A DNA stretch of 43,293 bases, taken from contig CAZIEE010000001.1 of NCBI GenBank assembly GCA_964538135.1, forward strand, positions 1 to 43,293. The letters run 5' to 3'. Origin of the DNA: an uncultured Methanosarcinales archaeon (GTDB lineage: Archaea > Nanobdellota > Nanobdellia > Woesearchaeales > GW2011-AR4). The translations under genes were made by a program, and so were the position numbers. Below are positions 3,323 through 38,820 of the stretch, piece by piece. The notes under the pieces are model-generated. The model made no database searches, was not told the DNA's origin, and was given only the letters and a program-made list of their open reading frames with translations. Each line of letters begins with the position of its first letter. Within the stretch, counting starts at the first letter, position 1.

Positions 3323-3514
3323 GGTATGTGCATAGCCGATCTTTACGACACTGAGCAAAATCACGCCTTCAGCGAGTTGCCGTCAGGTTCGCACATGGTT
3401 ATTATTTTTGTGATAACCGACATTCATCTCCGTAGGGGGCATCCCCTTCGCTGCAACGCTCGTAGATGAATTCAGTCCGATTGAATTTTGACCTTATGAT
3501 GCTATGCACATACC
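3323..3514. ncRNA. Candidate structured ncRNA of about 190 nt, family unknown
   Basis: G+C-rich island in an AT-rich divergent intergenic region. Perfect 14-bp closing helix: GGTATGTGCATAGC (3323-3336) with GCTATGCACATACC (3501-3514). Internal hairpins: GGTTAT/ATAACC, TTCATCT/AGATGAA and GGGG-GCAT-CCCC. Strand is uncertain. On the minus strand the helix is followed by a T5 tract and preceded by TATATATA at 3527-3537. Confidence 0.4.
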
Positions 3515-3537: not shown

Positions 3538-3613
3538 CATTAATATGGTTTACTGTATTTAATTGGATTGGTTGTTTAAATGCTGTTTAAAAGTGGTTTA
3601 AAAAAAGAGGTAT

Positions 3614-4735
3614 ATGAAATCAACAAAATCTCAACTTACTATAATCCTGATTGTAGTACTTGTTCTGGTTACCATATCTGGATTGGTAATCTACCTTGCT
3701 AAATCAGGAATTCAGGAAAGAACCAAAATTAACATAGAAAAAACTCAGGAAATTACTACAGAACTCCAACCAATTACAGCATTAGTATCAAATTGCCTTA
3801 ATGGCCTTGCAAAGGATGCAATCTTATTGATAGGCAAGCAAGCTGGATACATCTACACAAGCCAGGGTGGAACACTTAACGATTATTCAGATAGCGATAA
3901 AGGCAATCTTTTTATAAAGTATAATGATGTTAATGTTGGTTACAACATAGTGCCCCCTATTGGTAGTTTTGATGATGGTAGTAGAGTATATTCAGCTTAC
4001 TTGCCAGTTTATCCATGGAAGATATTCCCCTATAAAGATGATACTTCCTATGGTGATTCCAATAGAATCTATAAAGGATATTTTGGTAGAAACAAAATGC
4101 CACTATTAACTAAAGATAATGGTCTTCATTCCATTCAATCCAACATAGAGAGCTATGTTGATAAAAATATTATTAAATGTCTTGATTTTAGTTTGTTTGA
4201 AAACCAAGGTTACAAAATAAAAACAGACACTCCAAAATCAGATGCAATAATAGGAAATAAAGACCTTACGGTTAACCTGATACTTCCACTGAATATAATT
4301 CATCAAAAAATGAAACTTAATGCTGAGTTGAATGAATTTTCAACAATTGTTAATATACGACTTAAGGATATTTATTTTTTCACAGAAGAATTGATAAATA
4401 ATGATATTTCTGACATAAAATTCGATATTGATGCTGATACAAATAATAAGGATTCTATGACTATAGAGTTAATTAAAGATGTGAATAATAAAGATGATAT
4501 AGTAATCATAACTGAACATAATTCACTTGTTTATGGTAATCCTTATCAATATATATTTGCAAGAAAGAACAGAGCACCTGCTCTTCATTATATAAAATCA
4601 GGGAGTACCCCTCCATATAGCCCAAAAGCTGAAGACCCAGATGAAGATAGCTATACATTTACTACTACTATTACTACACCTCCAAAGGTAGAGGTAAGTG
4701 ATGGCTTGCTTATAGACTACCAAGATATAACTTAA
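3614..4735 (+). CDS. Prepilin-like (class III signal peptide) protein, first gene of the adhesin operon
   Basis: N-terminus MKSTKSQLTIILIVVLVLVTISGLVIYL has a short charged tip followed by about 20 hydrophobic residues. The 350-aa extracellular part has no recognisable domain. The stop lies 14 nt before the next gene. Confidence 0.55.
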   Translation: MKSTKSQLTIILIVVLVLVTISGLVIYLAKSGIQERTKINIEKTQEITTELQPITALVSNCLNGLAKDAILLIGKQAGYIYTSQGGTLNDYSDSDKGNLFIKYNDVNVGYNIVPPIGSFDDGSRVYSAYLPVYPWKIFPYKDDTSYGDSNRIYKGYFGRNKMPLLTKDNGLHSIQSNIESYVDKNIIKCLDFSLFENQGYKIKTDTPKSDAIIGNKDLTVNLILPLNIIHQKMKLNAELNEFSTIVNIRLKDIYFFTEELINNDISDIKFDIDADTNNKDSMTIELIKDVNNKDDIVIITEHNSLVYGNPYQYIFARKNRAPALHYIKSGSTPPYSPKAEDPDEDSYTFTTTITTPPKVEVSDGLLIDYQDIT

Positions 4736-4749
4736 AAAAAGACAATAAA

Positions 4750-7700
4750 ATGAAAAAAGAGGTTATAATTTTATTTTTGATGTTGTTTTCAATCTTTGTC
4801 CTACTCTTACCTACAGATGTTTCTGCTCAGATTGGGTGTTGTACAAATCCTGGAGCTGGGACTGCAATATGTTCATCTTTAGCAGTATCTATAGGTTCCT
4901 GTTGCCCAACTCCAGAAAAAGACAATCCTGTATATTATTCTGATACTAATACTCAACTACCAAAAGACTTTTCAACTTGTAAATCTACTTTCTTTTCTGA
5001 AGGTACTAGTTGTAACGATATTAAATGTCAAATAGGTTGTTGTTGTTCTGAACTGGGTGGAGAGATTAAATCAGGAGCAGAATGTAAAGGTCCAGGTTTT
5101 GAATTTAAAAAAGAGCTAACATCTTGTGATACTGCTTGTGCAACTCCAGAGTGTAGCGATAAGATAGACAATGATGGTGATGGTTGTATTGATGGCAAAG
5201 ACAAAGATTGTACCAGTACTTTTGATAAAGAAAAAACAAAACAAACAGGTAGTTCACCTTGCTTAGAGCAATCTATTGATTGCAGCTCTTTAACCTACGA
5301 ACCAAAATTGAGTAATCTGATAATAACTCCAATAAAAGGAGAAAAAAAGTTTTTATTAAGATGGGAAGATGAGTGTACTAATAATGCTCAAAATTATGAT
5401 ATTTTAAGGTGTAATAAAAATCAACAAGATTGTAAAGATTCAGATTTTAAATCTATATCTTCTACAAACACAAATTCTTATACAGACGAATCAGATTTAT
5501 TATTCGATAAAACCTATACTTACAAGGTCATAGCAACCTACACCAATGATAAACAAACAATAATAACCAAAACAGCAAATCTTGGCAATCTGGAATGTTT
5601 TGGTCAGACTAATGATAATATTTTCTGTATACACGGAACTTACTATGATCAATATGAACAATACTTAAAACAAAATAATTTGGGTAGTTTATCCAATTTT
5701 ATTAAAAAAGAGGAAGTAAAAAATAGATTTAATAAAGCATATTCTTGTAATTCTAATAATCTACTTATTTCAAATGGTCCAGATCCACCATGTGATGTTG
5801 ATTCTTTATGTCTTGTAAGGGACGGAGTAGCATCATGTGTGGAAAAAGTTACTTGTAATTATAATGAAGGAAATCCTTTTGGATTGTTTTATACAAAAGA
5901 AGGTTGTGAAGGAACTCCTACTACTACCCCCCCTATTCCCTATAAATACTGCTTCTACGATAGGTCACATACTACCATAAACTCCTGCTTTAATTGTAAG
6001 CCATCAATGGCATGTTATGATTATAAAGAAAAAGATTCATGTTTAAAAGATAATTGTGAGATAGGCTCTTGTGAGTGGATAGATTTAGTTAATGAGATTG
6101 GTGTTGGTGTTTGTCGTAGTACCTCTAAATCTAACTGCAAATGGTGTGAAAGTGAAGGAACAATCTCTTTAGGCAATCTGGAATCTTTCAATAAAGTGTT
6201 TGATTCCTGTACAAAGACAAAATCAGATGCATTATCCATTCCACCTGATCTCAAATGTTACTTTAGCAATGGAAGATCAAAAGATTGTAAAGATGCTGTA
6301 TGTACAGATTATGATCCTGATGAGATAACTCAATGCAGCCAAAAAATAAGTCTCGATCCTAATAATAATATATTACGTTATGGGTCTGGGACTAATAATC
6401 CAATACTGTCATCAGATCCATGTGGTCTAAATATATGTCAGAAAATTGAGGTAACATCTGGAAATTCTATGTGTGTTAAAAATGCAGATGGTGATGCCAA
6501 ACCAGATTGTCAATCCATAAAAGATAACTCTATCATTCCTGAATGTGAAAGTGATTATTTTGCTCCAGAGACAAAATTGACTCAAAAAACTAAAGTATCT
6601 GGAATACTCGACAAAATTAATTTAGAGATAACAGACCTTACAAGTTTTGATAGTCCAGTTATACTAGTTGATGAAAGTAAAGACTATAAAACCTTCCTTT
6701 GTGTTTCTAATGGCAGAGGAGAATCAAGGTGCAGTGATCCTCTAAAACATCCTTATGCTAAATCAACAAAAAAAAAGAGTATAGAAGTGATAGGGCTAGA
6801 AGCTTATGATACTGGAACTGGTAAACCAATTCTATTTTTTAATGAAGGAATAAATACCATAAAATACTATTCCCAGGATCCATCAAAGAACATTGAAGTA
6901 GTTAAAACTGCAGATATTAATGCACAAATTAGTGGAAGTGGTCCAAAGGTATTCAAAATTAATATACTTAATTCTGAGCTTAAAGAGGATTTTACAAAAA
7001 CACTTTATACGAACAGCAAAAATCAGGATATAAATGTTAAATTCTATACTCTTGCAACTTTGACATTTGCAAGGCTTGAGAAAAAAGGATTAATCAACCC
7101 AGTATGGAGTCTTATCAGCTCGGTTCCTACAGATAGTGAGAACTCTGTATTGTTACCAACAAAAGATGTAATGGGAGAGGGAGAGTATCAATTCAGGCTT
7201 AATGCAAAAAACGACAAAGGAATTTTGATGGATAGCGAGTTCTTAGCATCAATCATTGTTGATGTAACTGCTCCCAATCTTGATATTAAATATCTTGATG
7301 GCACTAATGAAAAAGAGTTGGCTGATGTAATCATCACCAGCAAAAATAATCAAGGAACAACTATAAAATTAAAGTTCAATGAAATAGTTAGCATTGAATC
7401 AGTTAAATTAGAAGACAAGGAAATAAAAAATGATTTCTCAACAACTGACAATAAAGAATTTAAACATACAATAATCCTTTTAGATGGAAATAAAAGACTT
7501 GATGTAAGAGCAAAAGATCTTGCAGGCAATGTAATTGAAAAATCAATTCAATTTACTATTAATGCAGATCCAAATCTGAAGATAAAGTTAGTAAATCCAG
7601 AATTTGGAGTTGCATCTGCCCTTACCTTTGATCTTGTTATAAAAACTGATAATGATGCTACATGTAAGTATAATTTAGATGATTCTCTTCAATTTGATTT

Positions 7701-10700
7701 TATGTCTGCTTTTGATCCAAAACCAAAACCATCAACTGAACATAAAAAAATCAGTTTTGATGGAATAAAAAAAGATGGTGAAGTTCATAAACTAAATATA
7801 AATTGTAAAGATGAAGTTAGTGGAAAAAATACTCTTCAATCATTCGATATAAGTGTTGATCTCACTGAACCAGAGATAATAACTGCGTATGCATATCCAA
7901 ATCCAATTACTGAAGATTCAAAAACAACTAGTTTGACTGTTCAGTCAAATGAACCTATAATATGTAAGTTCGGTACAGACCTTGGTAAAGATCCTGGTGC
8001 AATGTTTGACCAAATGAAAGGTTTTGAAGATTTTGATAAGAATAATTTTAAAACTATAACCTCTCAAAAAATTACTTTAGAAAATGAAGGAGAATTTACT
8101 TATTATGTTGCTTGCAAAAATAAAGCAGGACTTAAATCAGATGTTAAAGAAGTTATAATTAAAGTAGATTTATCAATACACCTAATTATTACTTCACATA
8201 CAGAACCTTTGTTTGGATCAGAAAATGTTAAATTATCTATAGAAACTAATAAGGAATCCAGTTGTAACTATAAACTAGGTTCACAAATCACATTGTTTGG
8301 GGAGCAAGGCTACACACATCAAAAAGATATTACTTTAACTAATGGTAAGCATAATCTTTTAGTCAAATGTTCTGCTAAAGGGGGAGTAGAAAATGATCAA
8401 ATTAACGTAGAAGTAATTGTGGATACTCAAAAACCACAAATGGTTTTTGTTGATGACACAAGTAATTTTGAGCAATTCCCAGAAAAGACCTGCTTAACAC
8501 ACAGATTAAGAGTTAAATGGTTAGGGAAGGATGATGAATCTGGTGTAAAAGAGTACTTTTATTCTCTGATTAAATCTGATAATCCTAAAAATACTATTAT
8601 AGGATTTACACAAAGTTTTGATAGTAATGAATTCGTATTTATTGATAAGACTTCAAATAATGAACCTCTAAATCTGAAAGACAATACTAAATATCTTTTC
8701 AAAGTAAAGGCAAAGGACTATGTAGATTTAGAGAGTGAACCTAAAGACAGTAATGGCATAACTGTAGATACATCTGCTTGCAGACCAGAACCAAAATGTG
8801 GAGATGGGGATATAAATAAGGAAGGGGAGGTTTGTGATTACTCTAATGGAAATTTTGTATTTGGTTCATATCCAAATAAATGTATTGATTACACAAATTT
8901 CATTGGAGGTATTTTGAAATGTTCTGGTAATTGTAAGGATTTTGATATATCAGACTGTGTTGAACAAAAATATTGTGGGGATGGGATAATAAACACAGGT
9001 GAGCATTGTGAGAAAGGGAAATCAGGTGTAGATAAATTTGGTAGCTCTAAAGCATGTACAGATTTAAATTTTGCTGGTGGTACATTAACTTGTGATTCCA
9101 GTAGGTGCTTTTTAGATACATCGAGATGTACACCCAAATCAAAATGTGGCAATAATTTGATAGACTTAGGAGAGGAATGCGATGGTACTAATTTTGGGAG
9201 TATATTATTAAATGCTGATTGCAAAGAATATAGTAGTGCATTCACAGGTGGAACATTTAGTTGTAATAAGTGTAAAATTGACACTAGTAAGTGTGAGGGT
9301 ATTCCAAATGGAAAATGTCCTGATAATACTATCAATATAAATGAAAAATGTGATGGTAACAGATTTGGTATCATAGATAATTGTGTTGAACTGGGCTTTA
9401 AGGGAGGGACTATAAGTTGTAGTAACAGATGTGAACTTGATACAAGTAAATGTGAACCAAAACCATTATGTGGAAATGATGTAATAGAGCCTGGAGAAGA
9501 ATGTGATGGAGACAATTTAGGAATAATAAAATCCAGTTGTTCTGAGTACAGTTCTTATTTCAGTAGTGGAACTATAAAATGTGATGACAACTGCAAATTA
9601 GATACATTTAACTGTGTTGAGTCCCCAGTGTGTGGTAATGGTTTTTTAGATGGTTCTGAGGAATGTGATAGAACTAACTTTATAGGGATTGCTGATGATA
9701 AATGCACCTCTTATAGCCAAACTTATGAAAGTGGGATACTTGGATGTGGTAAAGATAACTGTAAGGTATCTACAAATAATTGTGTACCTAAGCCAGAATG
9801 TGGTAATGGAGTAATTGAAAACGGAGAAAGTTGTGAAGGTAATGACTTTGGATCTAATGCTCCTAATGGAAAATGCACTACCTACTCTAATGATTTTATA
9901 GATGGTGACTTAAAATGTAAAAATTGTCAGATAGATGTATCATTTTGTAAATCAGTGCCAGAACCTATTTGTGGTGATGGTGTTATAAACCAAGTAAATG
10001 AGGAATGTGATCTAAAGGATCATAGAGGTAACACCTGTAAAACATTTGGTTATAAAAATGGGGATTTGAAATGTACAAATAATTGTGAATATGATACTAG
10101 TGGTTGTTCTAATCCTGAAAAGACATTTTGCCAAGATGGAAAAGTACAAGAACCAAACAGCGTTGGTTTTAATGAGCAATGTGATAAAAATGATTTAGGA
10201 GACAAAACCTGCAGTTCATTTGAAATTTATACTGGTGGAAGTTTAAGTTGTAATGTTGGTTGTACATTTGATTACACCAAATGTGTTCCTAAAAATCCTA
10301 ATATTCAACCAGTTTGTAATGATGGTGTTATAAACCAAGTAAATGAGGAATGTGATCTAAAGGATCATAGAGGTAACACCTGTAAAACATTTGGTTATAA
10401 AAATGGGGATTTGAAATGTACAAATAATTGTGAATATGATACTAGTGGTTGTTCTAATCCTGAAAAGACATTTTGCCAAGATGGAAAAGTACAAGAACCA
10501 AACAGCGTTGGTTTTAATGAGCAATGTGATAAAAATGATTTAGGAGACAAAACCTGCAGTTCATTTGAAATTTATACTGGTGGAAGTTTAAGTTGTAATG
10601 GTGATTGTACATTTGATTACACCAAATGTGTTCCTAAAGAGAAACCTGTAATATGTGGTGATGGAAAGATAGGTGGGAGTGAAACTTGTGATGGAAATAC

Positions 10701-12909
10701 TTTTGAAAATATAAATATCAAAAAATGCACAGATTATCCCAGCTTTGAAGGGGGGAATTTAAAATGTATACAATGTACCCTCAATACAGATAGTTGTATA
10801 CCCAAGCCTGTATGTGATAATGGTTTATTGGAAACAAGAGAGGTTTGTGACGATAATGATGGTCAAATCCCTGTTTTTGGTGCTATAAAATCATGTGATG
10901 ATTTCAACAATTTTGATGGAGGTATCCTTGGTTGTAATAACTGTGTTTTAGACAAAACAAATTGCATAAGGCACCCATATTGTGGAGACAAATCAATACA
11001 ATCATCTGAAAATTGTGATGATGGTATACTTGGAGTGATTGATAGTTGTGATGACCTTAATTTTGAAGGTGGTAATTTAAAATGTGGCCCAAATTGTTTA
11101 TTAGACACTTCTAAATGTAAACCAAAACAAAAATGTGGTAATGGTCTTATAGATCCTGAGGAGTCCTGTGATGGAAAAAACTTAGGAGCATTAAATGGTG
11201 ATTGTATTCAATATGATTCATCATTTTTTACAGGTGGAGAATTAAAATGCAATAGTAATTGTAAACTTGATACAACAGGATGTTTTGGTTCTAGTGGGAA
11301 ATGCGGAGACAATATTTTAAATATAGGAGAATCTTGTGATGTTGCATATTTTGGTGCAATAAAAGATTGCTCAGATATAAAAGATTTTAGTGGAGGGAGT
11401 CTTAAATGTAGTAATACCTGCACACTCGATACAAGTTTATGTATTCCTGCTGCTGAATGTGGTAATGGCTTGATATCACTAGGAGAAGGTTGCGATGGAA
11501 CTAATTTAGGAAAACTTCCAGATAACAAATGTTCATCTTATAGTCCTTTCTTTAAAAGTGGAATAATTAGCTGTAGAAATGATTGCCAGATAGATACATC
11601 TGGTTGTACTCAAGCTAAGTCTTGTGGTAATACTAAATTAGATCCAGGAGAATTATGTGATGGTTCTAATTTTACTGCTCTAAAGGATATAAGTTGTAAA
11701 AATTATAGTTCACTCTTTATTAATGGAACATTAACCTGTATAAACTGTGGTATAGACACAAAAAATTGTATTGCAAACATTACAAATATAACAATAACCT
11801 GTAGACACAGAGGAAATTGTCAGTTTGATGAAGCCTGTGATGATAATTCTGAGTGTGAAAGCAAGTTCTGCTTAGATAAAAAATGCAAAAAACCAACTTG
11901 CGATGATAAAAAAAAGAATCAGCTTGAATCTGATATAGATTGTGGAGGTGTTTGTACTAAATGTCAAAACAATCAGTCTTGCAATCAGAATGAGCACTGT
12001 CAAAGTAATTTTTGTAGCTTAGGTAAATGTAGATACAAGGGAGCTTGTGAAGATGGAAACCTAACTGGCACAGAAACAGATGTTGATTGTGGTGGTGAGG
12101 TATGCCAAACAAAATGCCCTGAAGGCAAGAATTGTAATGGGGATAAAGACTGTAAAACTGGATTGAGGTGTATTTTATCTAAATGTAAAAAGTGTACAGA
12201 AAATGAAACAGATTGTGATGGTAAAAAAGATACAATAGTTGGTGGTGATGGTGATAGTGATGGAGACGGAATCCCAGATAATTGGGAGCTTCTTCACGGG
12301 CTTAATCCAAATGACCCAAATGATGCTCAACTAGATCCAGACAGTGATGGATTAACCAATCAAGAAGAGTATAATGTAAAGAACACATATGGTAAAAGCT
12401 CTGACCCCAACAACAAAGATAGTGATGGAGATGGTTTTATTGATAAATTAGAACTAGAAGAGGAGACTAACCCAGTAGATGTTTCTGATTTTCCAAAATC
12501 TAATTTTTGGAAGATTTTGTTGTTTGTACTTGGAATAATGTTTTTGCTCTCAGGAATAGGGTTTTTAGCTTATAAAGGGGTGATGAGCAGAAGAGAAGAA
12601 ACTAAAGAAAGAAAACCTGTAAGGGTGCCTCAAATACCTCTAGAGGTTGGGCAGCATATGTTAAAGCCTAAGGTAATGTTAAGTCAAAAACCATACCAGA
12701 AAATTCCAATTAGGGAGATTATAAGGAAGAAAGAAGAAAAAAGGGCAAAAGACAGGGAAAAAATATTTGAGTCATTTGAAGAAAAGAAAGAAACTCCAAA
12801 ATTAGGTGAAAAGCCAAAACAAACTGAGGAAAAAGCTTCTGAAGATGTATTCTCTAAACTCAAAAATATTTCTAAAGAACAGAAACAAAAAGAGAAAGAA
12901 AATAAATGA
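4750..12909 (+). CDS. Giant (2719 aa) cysteine-rich repeat surface adhesin
   Basis: Uninterrupted 8.16-kb ORF. Sec signal peptide (...LLLPTDVSA/QIG). Cys-rich N-terminal region and an Ig/FN3-like beta-rich middle. About 18 modules of CG[DN]G..(x)..E.CDG...C...GG.L.C..C.LDTS.C, resembling DUF4215/Myxococcus-type Cys-rich repeats. Knot-like Cys modules follow. Thrombospondin-type-3-like DSDGDGIPD / DSDGDGFID calcium motifs. C-terminal TM (FWKILLFVLGIMFLLSGIGFLAY) and a K/E-rich cytoplasmic tail. Confidence 0.9.
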   Translation: MKKEVIILFLMLFSIFVLLLPTDVSAQIGCCTNPGAGTAICSSLAVSIGSCCPTPEKDNPVYYSDTNTQLPKDFSTCKSTFFSEGTSCNDIKCQIGCCCSELGGEIKSGAECKGPGFEFKKELTSCDTACATPECSDKIDNDGDGCIDGKDKDCTSTFDKEKTKQTGSSPCLEQSIDCSSLTYEPKLSNLIITPIKGEKKFLLRWEDECTNNAQNYDILRCNKNQQDCKDSDFKSISSTNTNSYTDESDLLFDKTYTYKVIATYTNDKQTIITKTANLGNLECFGQTNDNIFCIHGTYYDQYEQYLKQNNLGSLSNFIKKEEVKNRFNKAYSCNSNNLLISNGPDPPCDVDSLCLVRDGVASCVEKVTCNYNEGNPFGLFYTKEGCEGTPTTTPPIPYKYCFYDRSHTTINSCFNCKPSMACYDYKEKDSCLKDNCEIGSCEWIDLVNEIGVGVCRSTSKSNCKWCESEGTISLGNLESFNKVFDSCTKTKSDALSIPPDLKCYFSNGRSKDCKDAVCTDYDPDEITQCSQKISLDPNNNILRYGSGTNNPILSSDPCGLNICQKIEVTSGNSMCVKNADGDAKPDCQSIKDNSIIPECESDYFAPETKLTQKTKVSGILDKINLEITDLTSFDSPVILVDESKDYKTFLCVSNGRGESRCSDPLKHPYAKSTKKKSIEVIGLEAYDTGTGKPILFFNEGINTIKYYSQDPSKNIEVVKTADINAQISGSGPKVFKINILNSELKEDFTKTLYTNSKNQDINVKFYTLATLTFARLEKKGLINPVWSLISSVPTDSENSVLLPTKDVMGEGEYQFRLNAKNDKGILMDSEFLASIIVDVTAPNLDIKYLDGTNEKELADVIITSKNNQGTTIKLKFNEIVSIESVKLEDKEIKNDFSTTDNKEFKHTIILLDGNKRLDVRAKDLAGNVIEKSIQFTINADPNLKIKLVNPEFGVASALTFDLVIKTDNDATCKYNLDDSLQFDFMSAFDPKPKPSTEHKKISFDGIKKDGEVHKLNINCKDEVSGKNTLQSFDISVDLTEPEIITAYAYPNPITEDSKTTSLTVQSNEPIICKFGTDLGKDPGAMFDQMKGFEDFDKNNFKTITSQKITLENEGEFTYYVACKNKAGLKSDVKEVIIKVDLSIHLIITSHTEPLFGSENVKLSIETNKESSCNYKLGSQITLFGEQGYTHQKDITLTNGKHNLLVKCSAKGGVENDQINVEVIVDTQKPQMVFVDDTSNFEQFPEKTCLTHRLRVKWLGKDDESGVKEYFYSLIKSDNPKNTIIGFTQSFDSNEFVFIDKTSNNEPLNLKDNTKYLFKVKAKDYVDLESEPKDSNGITVDTSACRPEPKCGDGDINKEGEVCDYSNGNFVFGSYPNKCIDYTNFIGGILKCSGNCKDFDISDCVEQKYCGDGIINTGEHCEKGKSGVDKFGSSKACTDLNFAGGTLTCDSSRCFLDTSRCTPKSKCGNNLIDLGEECDGTNFGSILLNADCKEYSSAFTGGTFSCNKCKIDTSKCEGIPNGKCPDNTININEKCDGNRFGIIDNCVELGFKGGTISCSNRCELDTSKCEPKPLCGNDVIEPGEECDGDNLGIIKSSCSEYSSYFSSGTIKCDDNCKLDTFNCVESPVCGNGFLDGSEECDRTNFIGIADDKCTSYSQTYESGILGCGKDNCKVSTNNCVPKPECGNGVIENGESCEGNDFGSNAPNGKCTTYSNDFIDGDLKCKNCQIDVSFCKSVPEPICGDGVINQVNEECDLKDHRGNTCKTFGYKNGDLKCTNNCEYDTSGCSNPEKTFCQDGKVQEPNSVGFNEQCDKNDLGDKTCSSFEIYTGGSLSCNVGCTFDYTKCVPKNPNIQPVCNDGVINQVNEECDLKDHRGNTCKTFGYKNGDLKCTNNCEYDTSGCSNPEKTFCQDGKVQEPNSVGFNEQCDKNDLGDKTCSSFEIYTGGSLSCNGDCTFDYTKCVPKEKPVICGDGKIGGSETCDGNTFENINIKKCTDYPSFEGGNLKCIQCTLNTDSCIPKPVCDNGLLETREVCDDNDGQIPVFGAIKSCDDFNNFDGGILGCNNCVLDKTNCIRHPYCGDKSIQSSENCDDGILGVIDSCDDLNFEGGNLKCGPNCLLDTSKCKPKQKCGNGLIDPEESCDGKNLGALNGDCIQYDSSFFTGGELKCNSNCKLDTTGCFGSSGKCGDNILNIGESCDVAYFGAIKDCSDIKDFSGGSLKCSNTCTLDTSLCIPAAECGNGLISLGEGCDGTNLGKLPDNKCSSYSPFFKSGIISCRNDCQIDTSGCTQAKSCGNTKLDPGELCDGSNFTALKDISCKNYSSLFINGTLTCINCGIDTKNCIANITNITITCRHRGNCQFDEACDDNSECESKFCLDKKCKKPTCDDKKKNQLESDIDCGGVCTKCQNNQSCNQNEHCQSNFCSLGKCRYKGACEDGNLTGTETDVDCGGEVCQTKCPEGKNCNGDKDCKTGLRCILSKCKKCTENETDCDGKKDTIVGGDGDSDGDGIPDNWELLHGLNPNDPNDAQLDPDSDGLTNQEEYNVKNTYGKSSDPNNKDSDGDGFIDKLELEEETNPVDVSDFPKSNFWKILLFVLGIMFLLSGIGFLAYKGVMSRREETKERKPVRVPQIPLEVGQHMLKPKVMLSQKPYQKIPIREIIRKKEEKRAKDREKIFESFEEKKETPKLGEKPKQTEEKASEDVFSKLKNISKEQKQKEKENK
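8785..11770 (+). repeat. Array of about 18 coding repeats (50-58 aa each, 6 Cys) inside the giant adhesin
   Basis: The periodic CGNG/CGDG ... GEECDG ... LDTSKC pattern is read directly from the translation. Confidence 0.85.
9976..10641 (+). repeat. Near-identical 345-bp tandem duplication (two-module unit, 115 aa)
   Basis: 9976-10255 is identical to 10321-10600 (280 nt). After a 5-nt divergent patch, identity resumes to about 10296/10641. Confidence 0.9.
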
Positions 12910-12910
12910 A

Positions 12911-13438
12911 ATGAGTACAAAAAAGTCAGAGGTTCATAGTCAGATATTTGTTTATATTTTAACTGTTGTGGTAACTTCTTTACTCCTGGTCTATGGTTTC
13001 AATTCAATTCAGAAATTCAGAAAAAGCACTGAAGAGTTAGAGTGTCTGAAGTTAAAAAAGGATTTAAGTGGAGCAATTAAGTCCATTTTAGGAGATTTTG
13101 GTAGTGTAAAGAAGAAAGATGTTAGATTATGCAAGAACTACAAAGAGATTTGTTTTGTTGAAACTTTAGAGTTTAATTCAATTAATTTAGATAATATAAA
13201 CTGGATTAGGTACCCTTTTGAGATATCATCACCTAATCCGCCTGATCCAATAATATCTGGAGAAATAAAATCTGGTACTGGAAAAAATGCTTTCTTAGTT
13301 GATAAAATAGCAAAAGAGTCATTTAATATTGGAACAATATCTGTTAATAAAGATGTCTTGTGCATCAAAGCTCAAAATAATTTAATAAGCCTAAAATTAG
13401 AAGGTAAGGGAGATCATGTTTTAATAGATAAATGGTAA
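12911..13438 (+). CDS. Prepilin-like protein
   Basis: ATG lies 2 nt after the adhesin stop. N-terminus MSTKKSEVHSQIFVYILTVVVTSLLLVYGF. The track start at 12806 overlaps the adhesin tail and is rejected. Confidence 0.55.
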   Translation: MSTKKSEVHSQIFVYILTVVVTSLLLVYGFNSIQKFRKSTEELECLKLKKDLSGAIKSILGDFGSVKKKDVRLCKNYKEICFVETLEFNSINLDNINWIRYPFEISSPNPPDPIISGEIKSGTGKNAFLVDKIAKESFNIGTISVNKDVLCIKAQNNLISLKLEGKGDHVLIDKW

Positions 13439-13467
13439 TCTTGAGATATTTCTTATCGAGATAAAAA

Positions 13468-14517
13468 ATGAATAAAAAAGGATTTGAAATGCAGTTTAAT
13501 TGGATTTTTATTTTAGTTGCAGGAGTATTCATCCTTATACTGGTTGGTTTATTTATTTCCAGGAATACAGAAATTGCTGAAAGATCTGCCAAAACCAATT
13601 TAATTAGAAGTATTGAATCTATAATAACAAGTGCTAGTGTAAGCACAGACATAACAAATGTTGTTGAAATATCCAAATTAGAGATAGATATAAGTTGTAA
13701 TAAGATTTCTGTTGGGGGAGTGCCTAAACAATATCAGAATTTAATACTGTTTGCTCCATCAAAAATTAAAGGCAGTAAACTTATAACCCAAACATTAACT
13801 TTTAGTGTTCCATACAAAGCAACAAACCTTCTTTATATCACAAGTCCACAAGTGAGATACATAATAGTAGGGGATGGAGATAACTCTCTTGTAAAAAAAA
13901 TAGATGCTCTACTACCTAAGGATTTGAATAAAAAGCTTTACTCTACAACTGATCCAAATATTGCAAATATAGAAAACGAAAATAATTATAATATAAAATT
14001 TATAGTTTTTGGAGATAGTATGATTAATATCCCTGATAACTTAAAAAATATGCCAGATAAGTCAGTTACTGCTGTAAGAATACCCTATCCTGTAAGTGAT
14101 GAGATTACTGAGGATGATGAGATTACTGGAACAGTAGAATTTTATAAAAAAGAAGGGAACTCATGGGCGACTAATTCTCTTCAAGATACCTCCCCTTATA
14201 TTGGAATAGAATCCTTAATTGGAGCTATTTATTCAGATACAGTAGAATTATATAATTGTAATATGGGAAATACATTTTCGAGACTTAATCTTGTTACTCT
14301 TGTTTTAAAGCACAGATCTGAAAAATTAAAGAACTCAGATAAAACAAACGAAAACTGTTATGAGGTATATGCTTCCATATCATCTGATCTACAACAAATT
14401 ATTGATAAATCTTTAAACTTTAACTCAGAAAATGTAAATACCATTTTATCTGCTGCTTCAAATCTAGAATATGAAAATAAAAAGTTAGAAAAAGAATCGT
14501 GTCCCCTAATATATTAA
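13468..14517 (+). CDS. Prepilin-like protein
   Basis: MNKKGFEMQFNWIFILVAGVFILILVGLFI: a KKG/F class III cleavage-type motif followed by a hydrophobic helix. Confidence 0.6.
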   Translation: MNKKGFEMQFNWIFILVAGVFILILVGLFISRNTEIAERSAKTNLIRSIESIITSASVSTDITNVVEISKLEIDISCNKISVGGVPKQYQNLILFAPSKIKGSKLITQTLTFSVPYKATNLLYITSPQVRYIIVGDGDNSLVKKIDALLPKDLNKKLYSTTDPNIANIENENNYNIKFIVFGDSMINIPDNLKNMPDKSVTAVRIPYPVSDEITEDDEITGTVEFYKKEGNSWATNSLQDTSPYIGIESLIGAIYSDTVELYNCNMGNTFSRLNLVTLVLKHRSEKLKNSDKTNENCYEVYASISSDLQQIIDKSLNFNSENVNTILSAASNLEYENKKLEKESCPLIY

Positions 14518-15041
14518 TGGATAAGCAATCACAAATTCAAATAACAGAAACAATAGTCGTATTGTTTGTATTCTTCATATTAATGTTTGTTGGTTTAATC
14601 TTTTATTTAAAGATCTTTAAAAGTAATATAGAGTCAGAGAAGGAAGAGTTAAATCAACTTAATTCTATAGGTGTAGCACAAAGAGTTATGTTCATGCCAG
14701 AATTACAATGCAGTCAATCTATTGTAAAGGAGATAACTAATTGCATTGATATTATAAAACTAGATGCCATTAAAAGTGGAAATATAATTAAAACAAATCT
14801 GGCTTATTTTGATATATTTGGATTTAGTGAGATAACTATATCTCAAATTTATCCTATCGAACCTGGAAAAGAATCAGCTGATCCTACAGATTTATCTTTA
14901 ACTGAAAACCATTTACAAATCTATTCAAGAAAAGCAGAAGATTTGAAGCAAAGCTTTTCTACAAACGTACCAATATCATTATATGATCCAATAGAAAAAA
15001 AATATAGTTTTGGAATTTTAAACATAGTAACATACTCTTAA
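14517..15041 (+). CDS. Prepilin-like protein
   Basis: TAATG stop/start overlap with the upstream gene. N-terminus MDKQSQIQITETIVVLFVFFILMFVGLIFY. Confidence 0.5.
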   Translation: MDKQSQIQITETIVVLFVFFILMFVGLIFYLKIFKSNIESEKEELNQLNSIGVAQRVMFMPELQCSQSIVKEITNCIDIIKLDAIKSGNIIKTNLAYFDIFGFSEITISQIYPIEPGKESADPTDLSLTENHLQIYSRKAEDLKQSFSTNVPISLYDPIEKKYSFGILNIVTYS

Positions 15042-15058
15042 TTAATAACTCTAGATTA

Positions 15059-15541
15059 ATGATAATGAAAAAAGCACAAATGGAAATGTTAGGACTTGCA
15101 ATTTTTGTTGTATTATTAGTATTGGGATTTGCTTTTGTAGCTAAGTTATGGCTTTTAAAAAATCCAGTAGAGCATAGGCAGAGTTTTATCAGATCACAGC
15201 TTAGTTCAAACATGATTAATACATTGATTAAGACAAGTACAACTTGCTCTCAGCTATCCATGACAGAATTATTACAGGATTGTGCTCAGGCAAAAAGCAT
15301 ATCCTGTGGGAGTAAATCGTCATGCGAATTTGTTAAGGATACATCAAAAGAAATATTTGGAAAATCACTTGACAAATGGAAAATGACCTATAAATTTTTA
15401 GCTTATACCGACATTAATTCCCCTAGAACTTCAAGTATAATAAATTTAGGAGAGGATTGCAAAGCAAAAGAACGTGATTCAGAGATATTCCCTATAAGGA
15501 TAAGTGGAGGGACATTATATATAAGATTAGATATATGTTAG
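15059..15541 (+). CDS. Prepilin-like protein
   Basis: MIMKKAQMEMLGLAIFVVLLVLGFAFVA: a KKA/Q motif plus a hydrophobic helix, followed by a small Cys-containing globular part. Confidence 0.6.
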   Translation: MIMKKAQMEMLGLAIFVVLLVLGFAFVAKLWLLKNPVEHRQSFIRSQLSSNMINTLIKTSTTCSQLSMTELLQDCAQAKSISCGSKSSCEFVKDTSKEIFGKSLDKWKMTYKFLAYTDINSPRTSSIINLGEDCKAKERDSEIFPIRISGGTLYIRLDIC

Positions 15542-20781: not shown

Positions 20782-21960
20782 ATGAATATAGCAATCCTTT
20801 TAGGAGCAGGAAAAGGAAAGAGGGTAGGTTCTGAAAAAAATAAAGTATTATTAAATCTATTGGATAAGCCGCTAATTTTCCATACAATAGATATTTTTGA
20901 GAAATCTGATTTAATTGATTATATAATTCTTGTTGTAAATAAAATAAATGAAGGAGAAATAAAAAATATTATTAGTAAGTTCAGATTCAAAAAAGTAAAA
21001 AAAATAGTTTATGGTGGTAAAAAAAGACAAGATTCAGTTTATAATGGAGTAAAATCACTTGATAGATGTAATGATGGGGATATTATATTAATACACAATT
21101 CTGCAAATCCTTTTTTAAGTCAATCTACAATAAAAAAAGCGATTGAAGGGGCAAAAATTTATGGTGCTTCAGTAGCAGCAATCCCATCAGTAGATACAAT
21201 TAAGGAAGTAGATGTAAATAATTTTGTAATTAAAACATTAGACAGATCTAAATTATTGAGGGCACAGACTCCTCAGGCATTTAGGTATGACCTCTTAATT
21301 AATTCATTAAAACAAGCACATAAAGACAGATTCTATGCAACAGATGATGCAGCGCTGGTTGAGAGATTGGGGCATAGGGTCAAGATTGTTGAAACTGAAG
21401 CTGATAACCTAAAAATAACAACTCAACAGGATTTAATAATTGCAGAAGCCATTATGAATAATAAATCCAATGTATTGGATACAAAATCATTTAGAGTTGG
21501 GTTTGGTCAGGATAGCCATCGCTTTTCAAATAAAAAGAAAAAATTGGTTTTGGGAGGTTATTTGTTACCAAACGAAACCGGGTTAGAAGGAAATTCTGAT
21601 GCGGATGTTTTATTGCATGCTTTGTTTAATGCACTAAGTTCAGGAATTGGGGAAAGATCACTTGGTTATTATTCTGATTCAATGTGTAAAAAAGGAATAA
21701 TGAATAGCAAGGAATATTTGAAATTAATTTTAAATAAGATGAAGGAAAAGAATTTCAGAATCAATAATATATGCGTTAGTATAGAAGCAGCTAAACCAAG
21801 ATTTGAGGTACACACAAACAAAATCAAGGATTCATTATCAAAAATATTAAACATAGAAAAGAATGATATAGGTGTTACCTATACCTCTGGAGATGGTTTA
21901 ACCAAATTTGGCCAGGGAAAAGGAATTCAATGCTTTGTTGTGGTTAGTTTGGTAAAATAA
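20782..21960 (+). CDS. ispDF: Bifunctional IspD/IspF-like protein (cytidylyltransferase + MECDP-synthase domains)
   Basis: N-terminal half has LGAGKGKRVG and QTPQAF (IspD). C-terminal half has FRVGFGQDSHRF and GNSDADVLLHAL (IspF). Confidence 0.75.
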   Translation: MNIAILLGAGKGKRVGSEKNKVLLNLLDKPLIFHTIDIFEKSDLIDYIILVVNKINEGEIKNIISKFRFKKVKKIVYGGKKRQDSVYNGVKSLDRCNDGDIILIHNSANPFLSQSTIKKAIEGAKIYGASVAAIPSVDTIKEVDVNNFVIKTLDRSKLLRAQTPQAFRYDLLINSLKQAHKDRFYATDDAALVERLGHRVKIVETEADNLKITTQQDLIIAEAIMNNKSNVLDTKSFRVGFGQDSHRFSNKKKKLVLGGYLLPNETGLEGNSDADVLLHALFNALSSGIGERSLGYYSDSMCKKGIMNSKEYLKLILNKMKEKNFRINNICVSIEAAKPRFEVHTNKIKDSLSKILNIEKNDIGVTYTSGDGLTKFGQGKGIQCFVVVSLVK

Positions 21961-31386: not shown

Positions 31387-31671
31387 TTATAATTTAATCT
31401 CTTCTTTTAAATCTTCTATAGAATACCCTGATTTAAAACCACGATCTACAAGGTACTTTTCCATATCCCATATACTTATTTCTGCTTTAGCAGCAGCTTC
31501 CGAAATAGTTATTTTCCCTTCCATATATTTTTGAGCAACTTTTTTTGTAATTAAATCCTTGTATCTTATCACAACAAGTTTCTTAATTATAGTGCTTCTA
31601 TCAACAGACTCTTCTTTTTCTAGTTCCTTTACTTTTTTTAATGTATCATTGTTTAACTTTACTTTTATCAA
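31387..31671 (-). CDS. UPF0175-family antitoxin-like protein
   Basis: EGKITISEAAAKAEISIWDMEKYLVDRG helix-turn-helix pattern, paralogous to 32221-32538. Putative TTG start at 31671 with AGAGG 5 nt upstream. The track ORF continues in frame into a PIN remnant. Confidence 0.45.
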   Translation of the reverse strand: MIKVKLNNDTLKKVKELEKEESVDRSTIIKKLVVIRYKDLITKKVAQKYMEGKITISEAAAKAEISIWDMEKYLVDRGFKSGYSIEDLKEEIKL

Positions 31672-31794
31672 ATCTGCCTCTTTTTCCCAATATAAAGCTA
31701 TAGCTTCAGCCTCCCCTCTTTGTATATTGCATTCATTTGCTTTTTTAATAAGACTTTTTGATTTGTATTCGTTTTCATTTAAAGAATTTTGCAT
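31672..31794 (-). pseudogene. C-terminal remnant of a DUF3368-type PIN toxin, fused in frame to the antitoxin ORF
   Basis: ...RGEAEAIALYWEKEADLI aligns with GEAESIILFLQEKADFL of the intact PIN at 32531-33049. The catalytic N-terminal part is absent. The apparent ATG lies inside the 56-nt ATPase-gene fragment. Confidence 0.5.
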
Positions 31795-31827
31795 CTATAA
31801 AGAAATAAATATAACCGAAATAAAAAA
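31772..31827 (+). repeat. 56-nt fragment duplicated from the DUF4143 ATPase gene (33830-33885), 1 mismatch
   Basis: Direct comparison. Both copies encode FSFKEFCIYKEINITEIKK in the plus frame. Confidence 0.9.
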
Positions 31828-31848
31828 ATAAAGTTTAGTCTGATAATT

Positions 31849-32040
31849 TTATTTCAACCCATTAGCATGAACAGGAACAGGAACTGTAATCTTAATTGTT
31901 TTCTCTCCTGTATACCTTTCTAGTCTTACATGGGATCCTTTCTGTCTTGTAGCAATAAATCCTGCCCTCTTTAGTCGCTTAATAGCCTCAATATTAACTT
32001 TTCTAATGGTATATAAAGTATAAAATCTCAAAGTTTCCAT
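31849..32040 (-). CDS. hicA: HicA-like mRNA interferase toxin (orphan, short C-terminus)
   Basis: RQKGSHVRLER motif and IKRLKRAGF. No HicB partner is adjacent. Confidence 0.55.
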   Translation of the reverse strand: METLRFYTLYTIRKVNIEAIKRLKRAGFIATRQKGSHVRLERYTGEKTIKITVPVPVHANGLK

Positions 32041-32204
32041 GAGAAAAGCCACTATCTATAATAGTAAAGTATATCTTTATTTTTAGTTTTAAGGAATATT
32101 TGAGAACAACCAACTTCAAAGAAGAAATAAGTGGTTTAAAACTCCACCCTTTAGGGTGATATTTTTGGGTATACTACACCGAAAATGTCTTGAATTTCTA
32201 AGTG

Positions 32205-32238
32205 TCCTGAAAATTCGCTGTCAAAGGCGGATTTTCAT
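32205..32238. repeat. 34-nt hairpin element, copy 1 (TCCTGAAAATTCGCTGTCAAAGGCGGATTTTCAT)
   Basis: Imperfect 10-bp inverted repeat GAAAATTCGC/GCGGATTTTC overlapping the stop codon of the UPF0175 gene. It matches 42925-42958 at 31 of 34 positions. Confidence 0.8.
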
Positions 32239-32538
32239 GATATGTCTTACAGATTCGTTAAGATCTTCTAATGTTAGATTGCTTTCTATCCCCTTTTGTC
32301 TCATCAATTCAAAGAAATCCCCAATATACATATCTGCAAATTTTGCAGCTTGCTCAATTGAAAATTTGCCTTCTATATAAAGGTTCAAAGCCTTTTCTTT
32401 TTTGTCTTCTTGTATCCCTTTTTTTAGTATATCCCTAAAGGCTGTGGATTTATCCAAATTAAATATTCTGCTTACTTTCTTTATATATTCAAGACTATCA
32501 ATACTAAGTCTTGCTGTGACAGATACCAGCTTAGCCAT
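32221..32538 (-). CDS. UPF0175-family antitoxin-like protein
   Basis: EGKFSIEQAAKFADMYIGDFFELMRQKGI pattern. ATG 32538 is preceded by GGAGGT. 8-nt overlap with the PIN gene. Confidence 0.65.
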   Translation of the reverse strand: MAKLVSVTARLSIDSLEYIKKVSRIFNLDKSTAFRDILKKGIQEDKKEKALNLYIEGKFSIEQAAKFADMYIGDFFELMRQKGIESNLTLEDLNESVRHIMKIRL

Positions 32539-33049
32539 TTTTACCTCCAATATAATTCAATGTTTTGTTAATCAATTCATCTTTATACCTTCCATAAATA
32601 CCTAAATCCCTTATCATTTTATCTGCTTGATTTTTTGTGATAATGTGCATATCCAAGGCAGATATGACAAAAGTTAATGCTGTAATAAATGGAATTTTAT
32701 AAATTTTGCATACATTTATTGCTTTATGGTCATCGGTTGCTAAAAAATCTGCTTTTTCTTGCAAAAATAAAATGATAGATTCTGCTTCTCCTTCTGCCAA
32801 TCCAAATTCATTTACAATTTGGTTAAATTTTTTTTTCTCTTTTATATTTTTAACTTTAATCAAATTTTTATTGATTTTATTTTCTATTGAGTACGCATTT
32901 TCATATTTTGCATTTTTTCCTTTGATTACTGCTTCACTATAAACTTCCTGTGAGATTATAAAATTAAAATTTTTGAATAAATTATCTAGTAAAGCAATCT
33001 TCTCTAACAAAATCAGAGTTGATGCATCAGAGATGATTACTTTAGTCAT
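32531..33049 (-). CDS. PIN-domain protein (DUF3368-type toxin)
   Basis: VIISDASTLILLEKIALLDNL N-terminus and GEAESIIL...LATDDHKA core. Confidence 0.75.
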   Translation of the reverse strand: MTKVIISDASTLILLEKIALLDNLFKNFNFIISQEVYSEAVIKGKNAKYENAYSIENKINKNLIKVKNIKEKKKFNQIVNEFGLAEGEAESIILFLQEKADFLATDDHKAINVCKIYKIPFITALTFVISALDMHIITKNQADKMIRDLGIYGRYKDELINKTLNYIGGKNG

Positions 33050-38819: not shown

Positions 38820-38820
38820 T

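Follow-up and report, generated by a model that had tools for sequence, protein, structure and literature searches.

A conserved six-gene cassette of class III-signal proteins and a giant membrane-anchored protein as a candidate part of a type IV filament system in Woesearchaeota-type archaea

The tip or priming complex of minor pilins is a concept developed almost entirely in bacteria, and in Pseudomonas the minor-pilin operon lies apart from the genes for the assembly ATPase and platform protein. Among archaea, the EppA-processed pilins of Methanococcus maripaludis carry a short leader, a small residue and a conserved glutamine at +1; the pilus genes of this organism are spread over four or more loci, with those for the ATPase and the platform kept separate, and in Haloferax, too, the pilins are not co-transcribed with the ATPase (PMC3875500). 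Here, we describe six genes, A to F, on a 43,293-nt stretch of DNA (contig CAZIEE010000001.1; hereafter the window, meaning the whole stretch) that is placed within the Woesearchaeales. Five of them encode pilin-like proteins with predicted class III signals, and the sixth, B, a giant Cys-rich surface protein. The Woesearchaeota rank with the commonest and most widely distributed of the DPANN archaea; to our knowledge none has been cultured.

We find the cleavage-site pattern of the five pilin-like families and the order of most of these genes to be strongly conserved, and propose that the set probably serves accessory and adhesive functions in a type IV filament system assembled in trans. As such, the cassette offers archaeal candidates for the tip or priming complex of minor pilins, a concrete proposal as to what Woesearchaeota cells may use to hold partners or surfaces, and a defined, extremely conserved six-protein set to seek in metaproteomes, cryo-electron tomography maps and enrichment cultures.

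Class III-like signal sites in five protein families

The six co-directional genes lie on the plus strand at positions 3614-15541, separated by gaps of 14, 1, 29, -1 and 17 nt; re-reading the DNA returned the same coordinates and spacing as an earlier, sequence-only reading of the window. Gene A (3614-4735) encodes a pilin-like protein of 373 aa without a known domain, and gene B (4750-12909) the giant protein, 2719 aa long and of type I membrane topology. Downstream follow the pilin-like C (12911-13438; 175 aa), D (13468-14517; 349 aa, the largest of the pilin-like proteins behind B, with four conserved Cys), E (14517-15041; 174 aa), whose start codon shares 1 nt with the stop codon of D, and F (15059-15541; 160 aa, or 158 aa from a start at 15065), with six conserved Cys. 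For C, a list of open reading frames (ORFs) had proposed a GTG start at 12806; when 60 homologues are aligned, the conserved start proves to be the ATG at 12911, chosen in the earlier reading.

A short basic leader, a small residue and a hydrophobic helix had been claimed for five of the products, and the N-termini of A (MKSTKS↓QLTIILIVVLVLV), C (MSTKKS↓EVHSQIFVYILTVVV), D (MNKKG↓FEMQFNWIFILVAG), E (MDKQS↓QIQITETIVVLFVFF) and F (MIMKKA↓QMEMLGLAIFVV) fit that description, the predicted mature parts beginning QLTIIL, EVHSQIFVY, FEMQFNWIF, QIQITETIVV and QMEMLGLAI, respectively (arrows mark predicted cleavage sites). A window-wide scan for N-termini in which [KR][GAS] precedes a hydrophobic stretch recovered A, C, D and F, and E qualifies via its family consensus, KK[AGS]↓Q. 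Outside the operon, the single matching ORF of at least 100 aa was that of a Sec-type protein at 149-1699; what else matched, a handful of tiny ORFs or internal starts, is probably spurious. The signal is accordingly enriched in the operon, where five of six genes carry it, as compared to at most one among the ~29 further ORFs of this size (hypergeometric p ~1e-4).

Alignments of the five families, comprising 23 to 96 homologues each, revealed a common site. In family A (n = 23), position -1 is S, A or G in 22 sequences, -2 is K or R in 20, and +1 is Q in 22; the corresponding counts in family C (n = 61) are 60, 48 and 53. All 68 members of family E carry A, S or G at -1, and 67 of them Q at +1, while both features are present in each of the 52 family F sequences that include the N-terminus. 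Family D (n = 96) has A, G or S at -1 in 95 sequences and differs at +1, which is F in 91. Taken over the five families, G, A or S occupies -1 in at least 95% of homologues (mostly A or S, less often G) and K or R occupies -2 in ~79-97%, depending on the family; position +1 is Q in 87-100% of homologues in four families (A, C, E and F), and 95% of the D homologues have F there. Leaders measure 4-8 aa, with 86 of 96 public gene calls for D giving 5-6 aa, and conservation peaks at mature residues +1 to +13. The window's own C deviates from its family consensus in having E, instead of Q, at +1.

Three of the families further share an invariant early glutamate, located at +2 in D (96/96, with Q at +4 and W at +7 likewise invariant), at +3 in F (66/66, together with G at +6) and at +6 in E (68/68). 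An early Glu in the pilin helix is established knowledge, known as the E5 principle, and the residues in D, F and E echo it. Since comparison of the five families with hhalign returned no relationship past the N-terminus, they are not recent paralogues. The site is hence kept in five mutually unrelated families and dozens of species, as the earlier assignment to class III signals would have it. For A, a cadherin-like C-terminus (NRAPAL...AEDPDED...VSDG) had been considered and was dropped after a per-member Pfam scan of the family gave no support.

The same N-termini could, in principle, belong to ordinary signal-anchored type II proteins, that is, uncleaved anchors of superficial class III likeness within an unrelated membrane complex. 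Such an explanation would sit well with the lack of any pilin family or fold match, with the absence of a peptidase or an ATPase nearby, and with the fact that three of the five window proteins (A, C and E) have S at -1, with E in addition carrying Q rather than K or R at -2, which makes them less canonical than D and F. It accounts poorly for a -1 position that is G, A or S in at least 95% of homologues and a +1 glutamine in 87-100% of the members of four unrelated families with constant short leaders, for the conservation peak at +1 to +13 with its invariant Glu inside the hydrophobic segment, and for the presence, beside the cassette in relatives, of genuine small pilin-like genes that share the motif. 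As an anchor needs positive charges only, and neither a small residue at -1 nor a fixed one at +1, we regard this explanation as very improbable; that A, C, D, E and F are class III signal proteins, rather than generic signal anchors, is well supported by the alignments.

A conserved gene order and a larger cluster in relatives

To determine the prevalence of the cassette, we searched a set of 5.8 billion proteins for homologues of D. This returned 102 full-length relatives of 26-54% identity, whose named sources were metagenome-assembled genomes of Candidatus Woesearchaeota, Nanoarchaeota or Nanoarchaeia, and a D profile retrieved 2007 cluster representatives at 50% identity (E ≤1e-3); for F, 70 homologues were found. 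The names of these source genomes mark the window's own organism as a Woesearchaeota-type DPANN archaeon. The cassette comprises five unannotated families, one of which spans ~2000 such clusters. A separate scan of one genome per GTDB species placed D relatives at 194 sites, of which the best 80 were fetched with 10-kb flanks for locus comparison, their ORFs being called and classified with jackhmmer searches seeded with the window proteins. Most contig titles in these 80 loci name Woesearchaeota, Nanoarchaeota or Nanoarchaeia. About half of the cassette contigs (L008, L009, L014 and ~35 others) stem from third-party assemblies and are titled 'uncultured Methanosarcinales', and one (L076) bears the title 'Candidatus Aminicenantes bacterium'. 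Because gene content and synteny of these contigs match the Woesearchaeota loci, we suspect placeholder labels or mis-binning.

Gene order is strongly kept across these species. Where the locus leaves room for judgement, C lies directly upstream of D in 63 of 72 loci and E and then F follow D in 63 of 70; a product of 900 aa or more is encoded no further than three genes ahead of D in 57 of 60, such that the order giant-C-D-E-F holds in ~90% of the loci that are long enough. Homologues of B are present in 72 fetched loci, and members of family A in ~43-46, always upstream of the giant gene. The expectation that the operon would be conserved in related lineages is thereby borne out. The genes that flank it vary between loci, so that the cassette forms a conserved unit of its own. 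The stop of the giant gene overlaps the next start by 4 nt in 29 of 59 loci (in the window there is a gap of 1 nt), which suggests that the giant gene is translationally coupled to its neighbour.

Relatives mostly carry more than the six genes. Within six genes of F, 44 of 71 loci encode one to three small Cys-rich proteins of 80-120 aa, a family that jackhmmer detected in 57-68 loci. Their N-termini, M(x)KK[AGS]↓Q[SG][IL]S[IL]N-TIIIAAIALAVLVVLF or KKAQ(S/G)ISINTIIIAAIALAVLVVLF, have the K[AGS]↓Q site in common with the cassette. On this evidence, the small proteins of ~90 aa downstream of F are the obvious candidates for major pilins, and none of the curated pilin models in Pfam and NCBIfam matched them at E ≤1. 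Behind the small pilins, many relatives encode ~10 further proteins with a pilin-like N-terminus, followed by a protein of 592-604 aa with an N-terminal transmembrane (TM) segment; a giant secreted protein is found upstream of A. The result is a cluster of ~20 genes without Pfam annotation (for example L028:12042-20996, L012:12254-20622 and L029:12242-20503). In the window, by contrast with these relatives, F is followed by unrelated minus-strand genes and there is no second part of the cluster. The earlier description of an operon of five prepilin-like proteins and an adhesin therefore holds for the window and does not extend to most relatives, where the cassette forms the first part of the larger cluster.

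We also noted, in the clusters of relatives and outside the window, a protein of ~350-380 aa that combines a class III-like N-terminus, MKSKKG↓TEGIEWIF..., with a domain resembling Peptidase_M15/VanY D-Ala-D-Ala dipeptidase (Pfam 1.4e-10; NCBIfam down to 2.7e-15). The family occurs in 27 fetched loci, with examples at L028:18089-19219, L012:17766-18806 and L029:17586-18719. This protein would be a 'modular pilin' whose enzyme part could possibly cut peptidoglycan, although it is encoded by an archaeon.

The giant membrane-anchored protein B

The features ascribed to B by the earlier reading, namely a giant Cys-rich protein with calcium motifs, a Sec signal of its own and a C-terminal TM anchor, were all found. 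The protein contains 192 Cys (7.1%) and starts with a Sec-type signal peptide at aa 1-26 (4750-4827; MKKEVIILFLMLFSIFVLLLPTDVSA↓QIGCC, the predicted cut falling within DVSA↓QIGCC), a hydrophobic segment that is also kept in its homologues. A Cys-rich N-terminal region precedes an array of immunoglobulin (Ig)-like and fn3-like domains at ~aa 680-1340 (6787-8769), in which Pfam Big_13 matched aa 871-937 (5e-6) and an OmpL47-type NCBIfam model aa 684-723. Next come 18 tandem Cys-rich modules of ~55 aa (CG[DN]G..x..EECD...; aa 1350-2345; 8797-11784), which were counted by regular expression and show a weak match to Pfam DUF4215. Inside this module array, Tandem Repeats Finder identified a 345-bp tandem duplication of 1.9 copies and 98% identity (9968-10638), which indicates recent repeat expansion, and additional Cys-rich modules lie downstream of the 18.

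Closer to the membrane, at aa 2502 and 2557 (12247-12459), B has two TSP3-type calcium motifs, DSDGDGIPD and DSDGDGFID (Pfam TSP3_bac 7.9e-5, below the curated cut-off). These membrane-proximal motifs, of the form D-x-D-x-D-G-x-x-D, are highly conserved (coverage 61 loci), and a third is located at aa 140. A hydropathy scan placed the C-terminal TM anchor at ~aa 2586-2608 (12505-12573), and most of 59 giant homologues likewise have a TM segment no more than 250 residues from their end, as a rule at a distance of 150-200 aa. Beyond it extends a K/E-rich cytoplasmic tail of 111 aa (12574-12906), delineated from the C-termini of homologues (coverage 56-61 loci). This lysine-rich tail closes with the motif (E/K)DVFxKLKxI, which is found again in most homologues, sometimes in duplicate, and whose conservation suggests a cytoplasmic binding partner. 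B thus has type I membrane topology and an ectodomain of ~2550 aa, and is no free secreted adhesin.

Conservation along B is uneven. The two best-conserved parts are aa 900-1340 within the Ig array, covered by homologues from 46-59 loci, and a block that runs from aa 2350 via the TM segment into the tail; coverage of the module array drops to 4-19 loci. The homologues range from 1617 to 2740 aa in length, with a widely variable middle region, and several relatives' loci hold two or three different giant proteins. In a group of divergent relatives (L006, L061, L064, L067, L053 and L055) the giant is split into consecutive genes for ~2100 and ~1000 aa, the C-terminal TM anchor being confined to the product of the second. 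Should an attachment role hold true, the variable Cys-rich array would be the obvious place to seek host specificity.

Could B instead be the main, TM-anchored coat of the cell, with the pilin-like proteins serving as envelope accessories that, for instance, open this coat for filaments? Cys-rich, C-terminally TM-anchored proteins resembling those of surface layers (S-layers) do occur inside archaeal type IV pilus loci (Makarova et al. 2016, PMC4858521), and a 2026 preprint on type IV filaments (TFF) suggests such proteins to prime the cell wall for filament passage (10.64898/2026.04.22.720090). Ig-like arrays and calcium motifs, moreover, are typical of surface-layer proteins. Scans of B against Pfam and NCBIfam, though, gave only weak Ig, TSP3 and DUF4215 matches, with no S-layer domain in Pfam; an NCBIfam match to Amuc_1099 covered the TSP3 motif only and scored below the cut-off. 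The spread in length, the gain and loss of repeats and the 98% identical duplication are more in keeping with an adhesin under diversifying pressure, and the two or three different giants per locus in several relatives also speak against a single coat. The variable and recently duplicated repeat array makes a lattice-forming S-layer protein less likely, and we deem such an envelope module improbable.

Proposed role and comparison with known systems

Combining these observations, we propose that the cassette probably supplies both the accessory subunits, for tip or priming, and the adhesive component of a trans-assembled type IV filament system in Woesearchaeota-type DPANN archaea. The preproteins A and C-F, with basic leaders of 4-6 residues, would be cut after G, A or S by a peptidase of the EppA, PibD or FlaK type encoded elsewhere. 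The mature proteins would start with Q (F in the case of D, and E in the window's C), their long N-terminal helices being embedded in the membrane at first. A FlaI/CpaF-type ATPase and a FlaJ/TadC-type platform, encoded elsewhere as well, would build from them a heteromeric complex of fixed stoichiometry, which would initiate or cap a thin pilus of the ~90-aa small pilins. Co-translated with its neighbour, B would be held in the membrane beside the pilus base as a long, disulfide-rich and calcium-binding adhesive or spacer fibre, and the conserved stretch next to the membrane, with the tail, may link it to the other five proteins or to a partner in the cytoplasm. Together, the pilin set and B would mediate attachment to other cells or surfaces. 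It is signal cleavage, assembly of a filament or tip, the association of B with the pilins and the attachment function that we infer here.

Several findings weigh against this proposal, the first group of which concerns the assembly machinery. As the earlier reading had stated, the window encodes none: Pfam scans of the larger ORFs found no secretion ATPase, no TadC/FlaJ platform and no A24 prepilin peptidase. In the 80 loci and their flanks, a regular expression for Walker A motifs picked up MCM and an SMC-like protein only and no secretion ATPase, no polytopic membrane protein was conserved near the cassette, and precomputed Pfam annotation shows no machinery. With nothing in cis in the window or in these loci, assembly, if any, must proceed in trans. 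On whether DPANN archaea possess type IV pili at all, the literature is split: one preprint reports that components of the pilus are missing from DPANN genomes (10.1101/2020.05.14.094862), whereas others describe homologues of flaI, flaJ and flaK in Woesearchaeota (PMC5994134) and CpaF/TadC loci across cluster-2 DPANN, Woesearchaeota included (PMC11291902).

Further contrary points arise from the proteins themselves. Scans against Pfam and NCBIfam returned no match for A, C, D, E or F and no pilin-type model at E ≤1, and neither DUF361/Class_IIIsignal nor other N-terminal models of pilins and archaellins matched any cassette protein. When PDB sequences were searched with profiles of the five pilin-like proteins and the small pilins, and with B itself, nothing significant was returned, the best pilin-type matches, 6w8u (E 1.2) and 8rey (E 0.8), being restricted to the hydrophobic helix. 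This agrees with the earlier claim of an undescribed composition. The early glutamate, too, is never at +5, and families A and C are devoid of it. The window has no gene for a small major pilin. Lastly, the TM anchor of B and its conserved cytoplasmic tail of ~110 aa are at odds with the protein riding on a pilus tip in the manner of PilY1, and thus speak against a literal PilY1-type tip adhesin.

Structure prediction for D and F gave confident models and cut both ways. The AlphaFold2 model of D (predicted local distance difference test score, pLDDT, 93.1; predicted template-modelling score, pTM, 0.87) comprises a helix at residues 3-56, a beta-rich part at 62-125, alternating alpha and beta elements up to ~245 and a three-helix bundle at 246-342. 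In that of F (pLDDT 91.4), helices 5-32 and 36-58, set apart by a Pro break, are followed by two short helices and a C-terminal four-stranded sheet that ends at the conserved Cys forming the last residue. In either model, the helices extend to residue ~56-58, which is about 30 residues past the end of the membrane-spanning part, and pass directly into the alpha/beta head, so that the predicted topology, a ~55-residue helix and then a head, is compatible with a pilin. The pilin fold for which the earlier reading suggested a check did not emerge from a Foldseek search against the PDB, which counts as another point on the contrary side: the best hits of D (E 0.069) and F (E 0.039) had template-modelling scores of at most 0.36, with neither a solved pilin nor any other solved neighbour among them.

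A rival explanation does without a filament: the class III-processed proteins would form a short pseudopilus or a membrane-proximal stalk that organises, supports or positions B. Models for this exist in the Sulfolobus bindosome, in which class III-signal proteins are not pilus subunits, and in the pseudopilus of the type II secretion system (T2SS). The best-conserved extracellular part of B, consisting of Cys-rich modules and TSP3 motifs, is membrane-proximal (aa 2350-2580), where unassembled pilin-like proteins reside, and B itself is TM-anchored. The extra alpha/beta and helical domains of D are atypical of filament subunits; the window and about a third of the relatives are devoid of an adjacent small pilin gene; and at no locus is there an ATPase in cis. 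In most relatives, on the other hand, small pilin genes with the same motif adjoin the cassette, and four distinct families in fixed order are the pattern of bacterial tip and priming sets. A pseudopilus, besides, needs the same ATPase and platform and differs from a pilus in filament length only. We consider this explanation unlikely.

A bolder version of the filament proposal takes in the entire ~20-gene cluster of relatives. Nearly all of its products are class III-signal proteins, comprising families A and C-F together with two or three small pilins and ~10 more pilin-like proteins (one of them with the M15 domain); one to three giants are added to these. The cassette might then be the core of a Woesearchaeota-specific, pilus-derived organelle with new folds, which would attach the symbiont to its host, with B tying it to the symbiont's own cytoplasm by the conserved EDVFxKLK tail, and would possibly cut the host wall. 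We put this forward tentatively, as a possibility that we find doubtful rather than far-fetched; if true, DPANN episymbiosis would have its physical basis in this organelle in what is, among uncultured DPANN archaea, the most widespread group.

As for the remainder of the window, its gene content is archaeal (aIF2-beta, archaeal-type L11, archaeal phosphoenolpyruvate carboxylase and DnaG-type primase). Immediately upstream of gene A, at 3575-3613 on the plus strand, A/T-rich TTTAAA boxes and a GAGGT 5 nt before the ATG mark a putative promoter-proximal and ribosome-binding region, as read from the letters alone. Further upstream, in the intergenic space between a Sua5/YrdC gene and gene A, is a GC-rich island (3330-3500; 47-55% GC as compared to a background of ~30%, and ~31% for the AT-rich window), for which a tRNA search, Rfam (above threshold) and a folding z-score were all negative. 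An operon on the minus strand (34697-42850) was considered as divergent assembly machinery and rejected, for its ATPase is not of the secretion type, Pfam and PADLOC gave no assignment to such machinery, and the operon is not conserved beside the cassette elsewhere. The five overlapping genes of this operon encode coiled-coil-rich proteins of 903 and 492 aa, a membrane protein of 556 aa, a 9-TM protein of 393 aa and the ATPase of 394 aa, and belong to no Pfam or PADLOC family save for a weak 'archaeal ATPase'/STAND-like match.

At 20782-21960, the contig encodes a fused IspD/IspF protein. Both are enzymes of the methylerythritol phosphate (MEP) pathway and typically bacterial; in this archaeal contig, the gene was maybe acquired horizontally. 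An ATPase of the AAA_14/DUF4143 type (33368-34645) matches the PADLOC candidate defence family PDC-S01 (3.5e-112), and beside it (31387-33049) are genes for two small proteins of the UPF0175 family and for a protein with a possible nuclease fold. Together, these genes may be a toxin-antitoxin or defence islet.

Among described systems, the one that the earlier reading had in mind was the bacterial operon of minor pilins and a large adhesin. Like fimU-pilVWXY1E of P. aeruginosa, the cassette joins four or five dissimilar pilin-like proteins with the gene of a large, calcium-binding non-pilin adhesin (PMC5979040), in a fixed set apart from the genes for ATPase, platform and peptidase. This analogy is one of organisation only: sequence and fold similarity are lacking, cleavage is at K[GAS]↓Q in the cassette versus G↓F...E5, and B is 2.3 times larger than PilY1, possesses a Sec signal, a C-terminal TM segment and a tail, and has no PilY1/PilC-type match in Pfam. 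What remains of the proposed likeness is the fixed set of dissimilar pilin-like genes with a giant; homology does not, nor does the parallel extend to the membrane anchor of B. The GspH-GspI-GspJ-GspK set of the T2SS provides a second parallel, with four minor subunits of which one is much larger (in the cassette, C ~160, D ~340, E ~160 and F ~160 aa). GspK, of ~330 aa, has an extra helical domain and no E5; D resembles it in its additional helical bundle and differs from it in keeping an early Glu. There is no homology or Foldseek match to these proteins, no secretin or other T2SS context, and the lineage is archaeal.

Closer in lineage are the Epd pilins of M. maripaludis, which are archaeal minor pilins of very different sizes with Q at +1 behind a short leader ending in a small residue, and whose locus contains adhesin-like proteins while ATPase and platform reside at a separate locus (PMC3875500; 10.64898/2026.04.22.720090). 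In contrast to the cassette, where Glu is at +2, +3 or +6 or missing and D has F at +1, they have Gly at -1 and Glu at +5; nor does the cassette have an EppA gene in cis, and all five families and the giant are different. Several class III-signal proteins, Cys-rich parts and a large protein with a signal peptide and/or a C-terminal TM segment, be it an Ig-rich or PilY-like adhesin or an S-layer-like protein, also characterise archaeal TFF loci of systems 1, 2, 4A and 4G (PMC4858521; 10.64898/2026.04.22.720090). Those loci, however, are defined around the genes for ATPase and TadC, neither of which the cassette ever has within 10 kb. The concept is hence familiar, and the cassette itself is very widespread, wholly unannotated and equipped with D and F heads that have no solved neighbour. 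In cultivated DPANN archaea (Ca. Nanohaloarchaeum antarcticus SPEARE; CpaF/TadC loci), giant surface proteins and type IV-like genes are similarly proposed as host-interaction factors (PMC6642349, PMC11291902); where those loci join ATPase, platform and coiled-coil proteins, the cassette joins pilin-like proteins and a Cys-rich repeat protein only.

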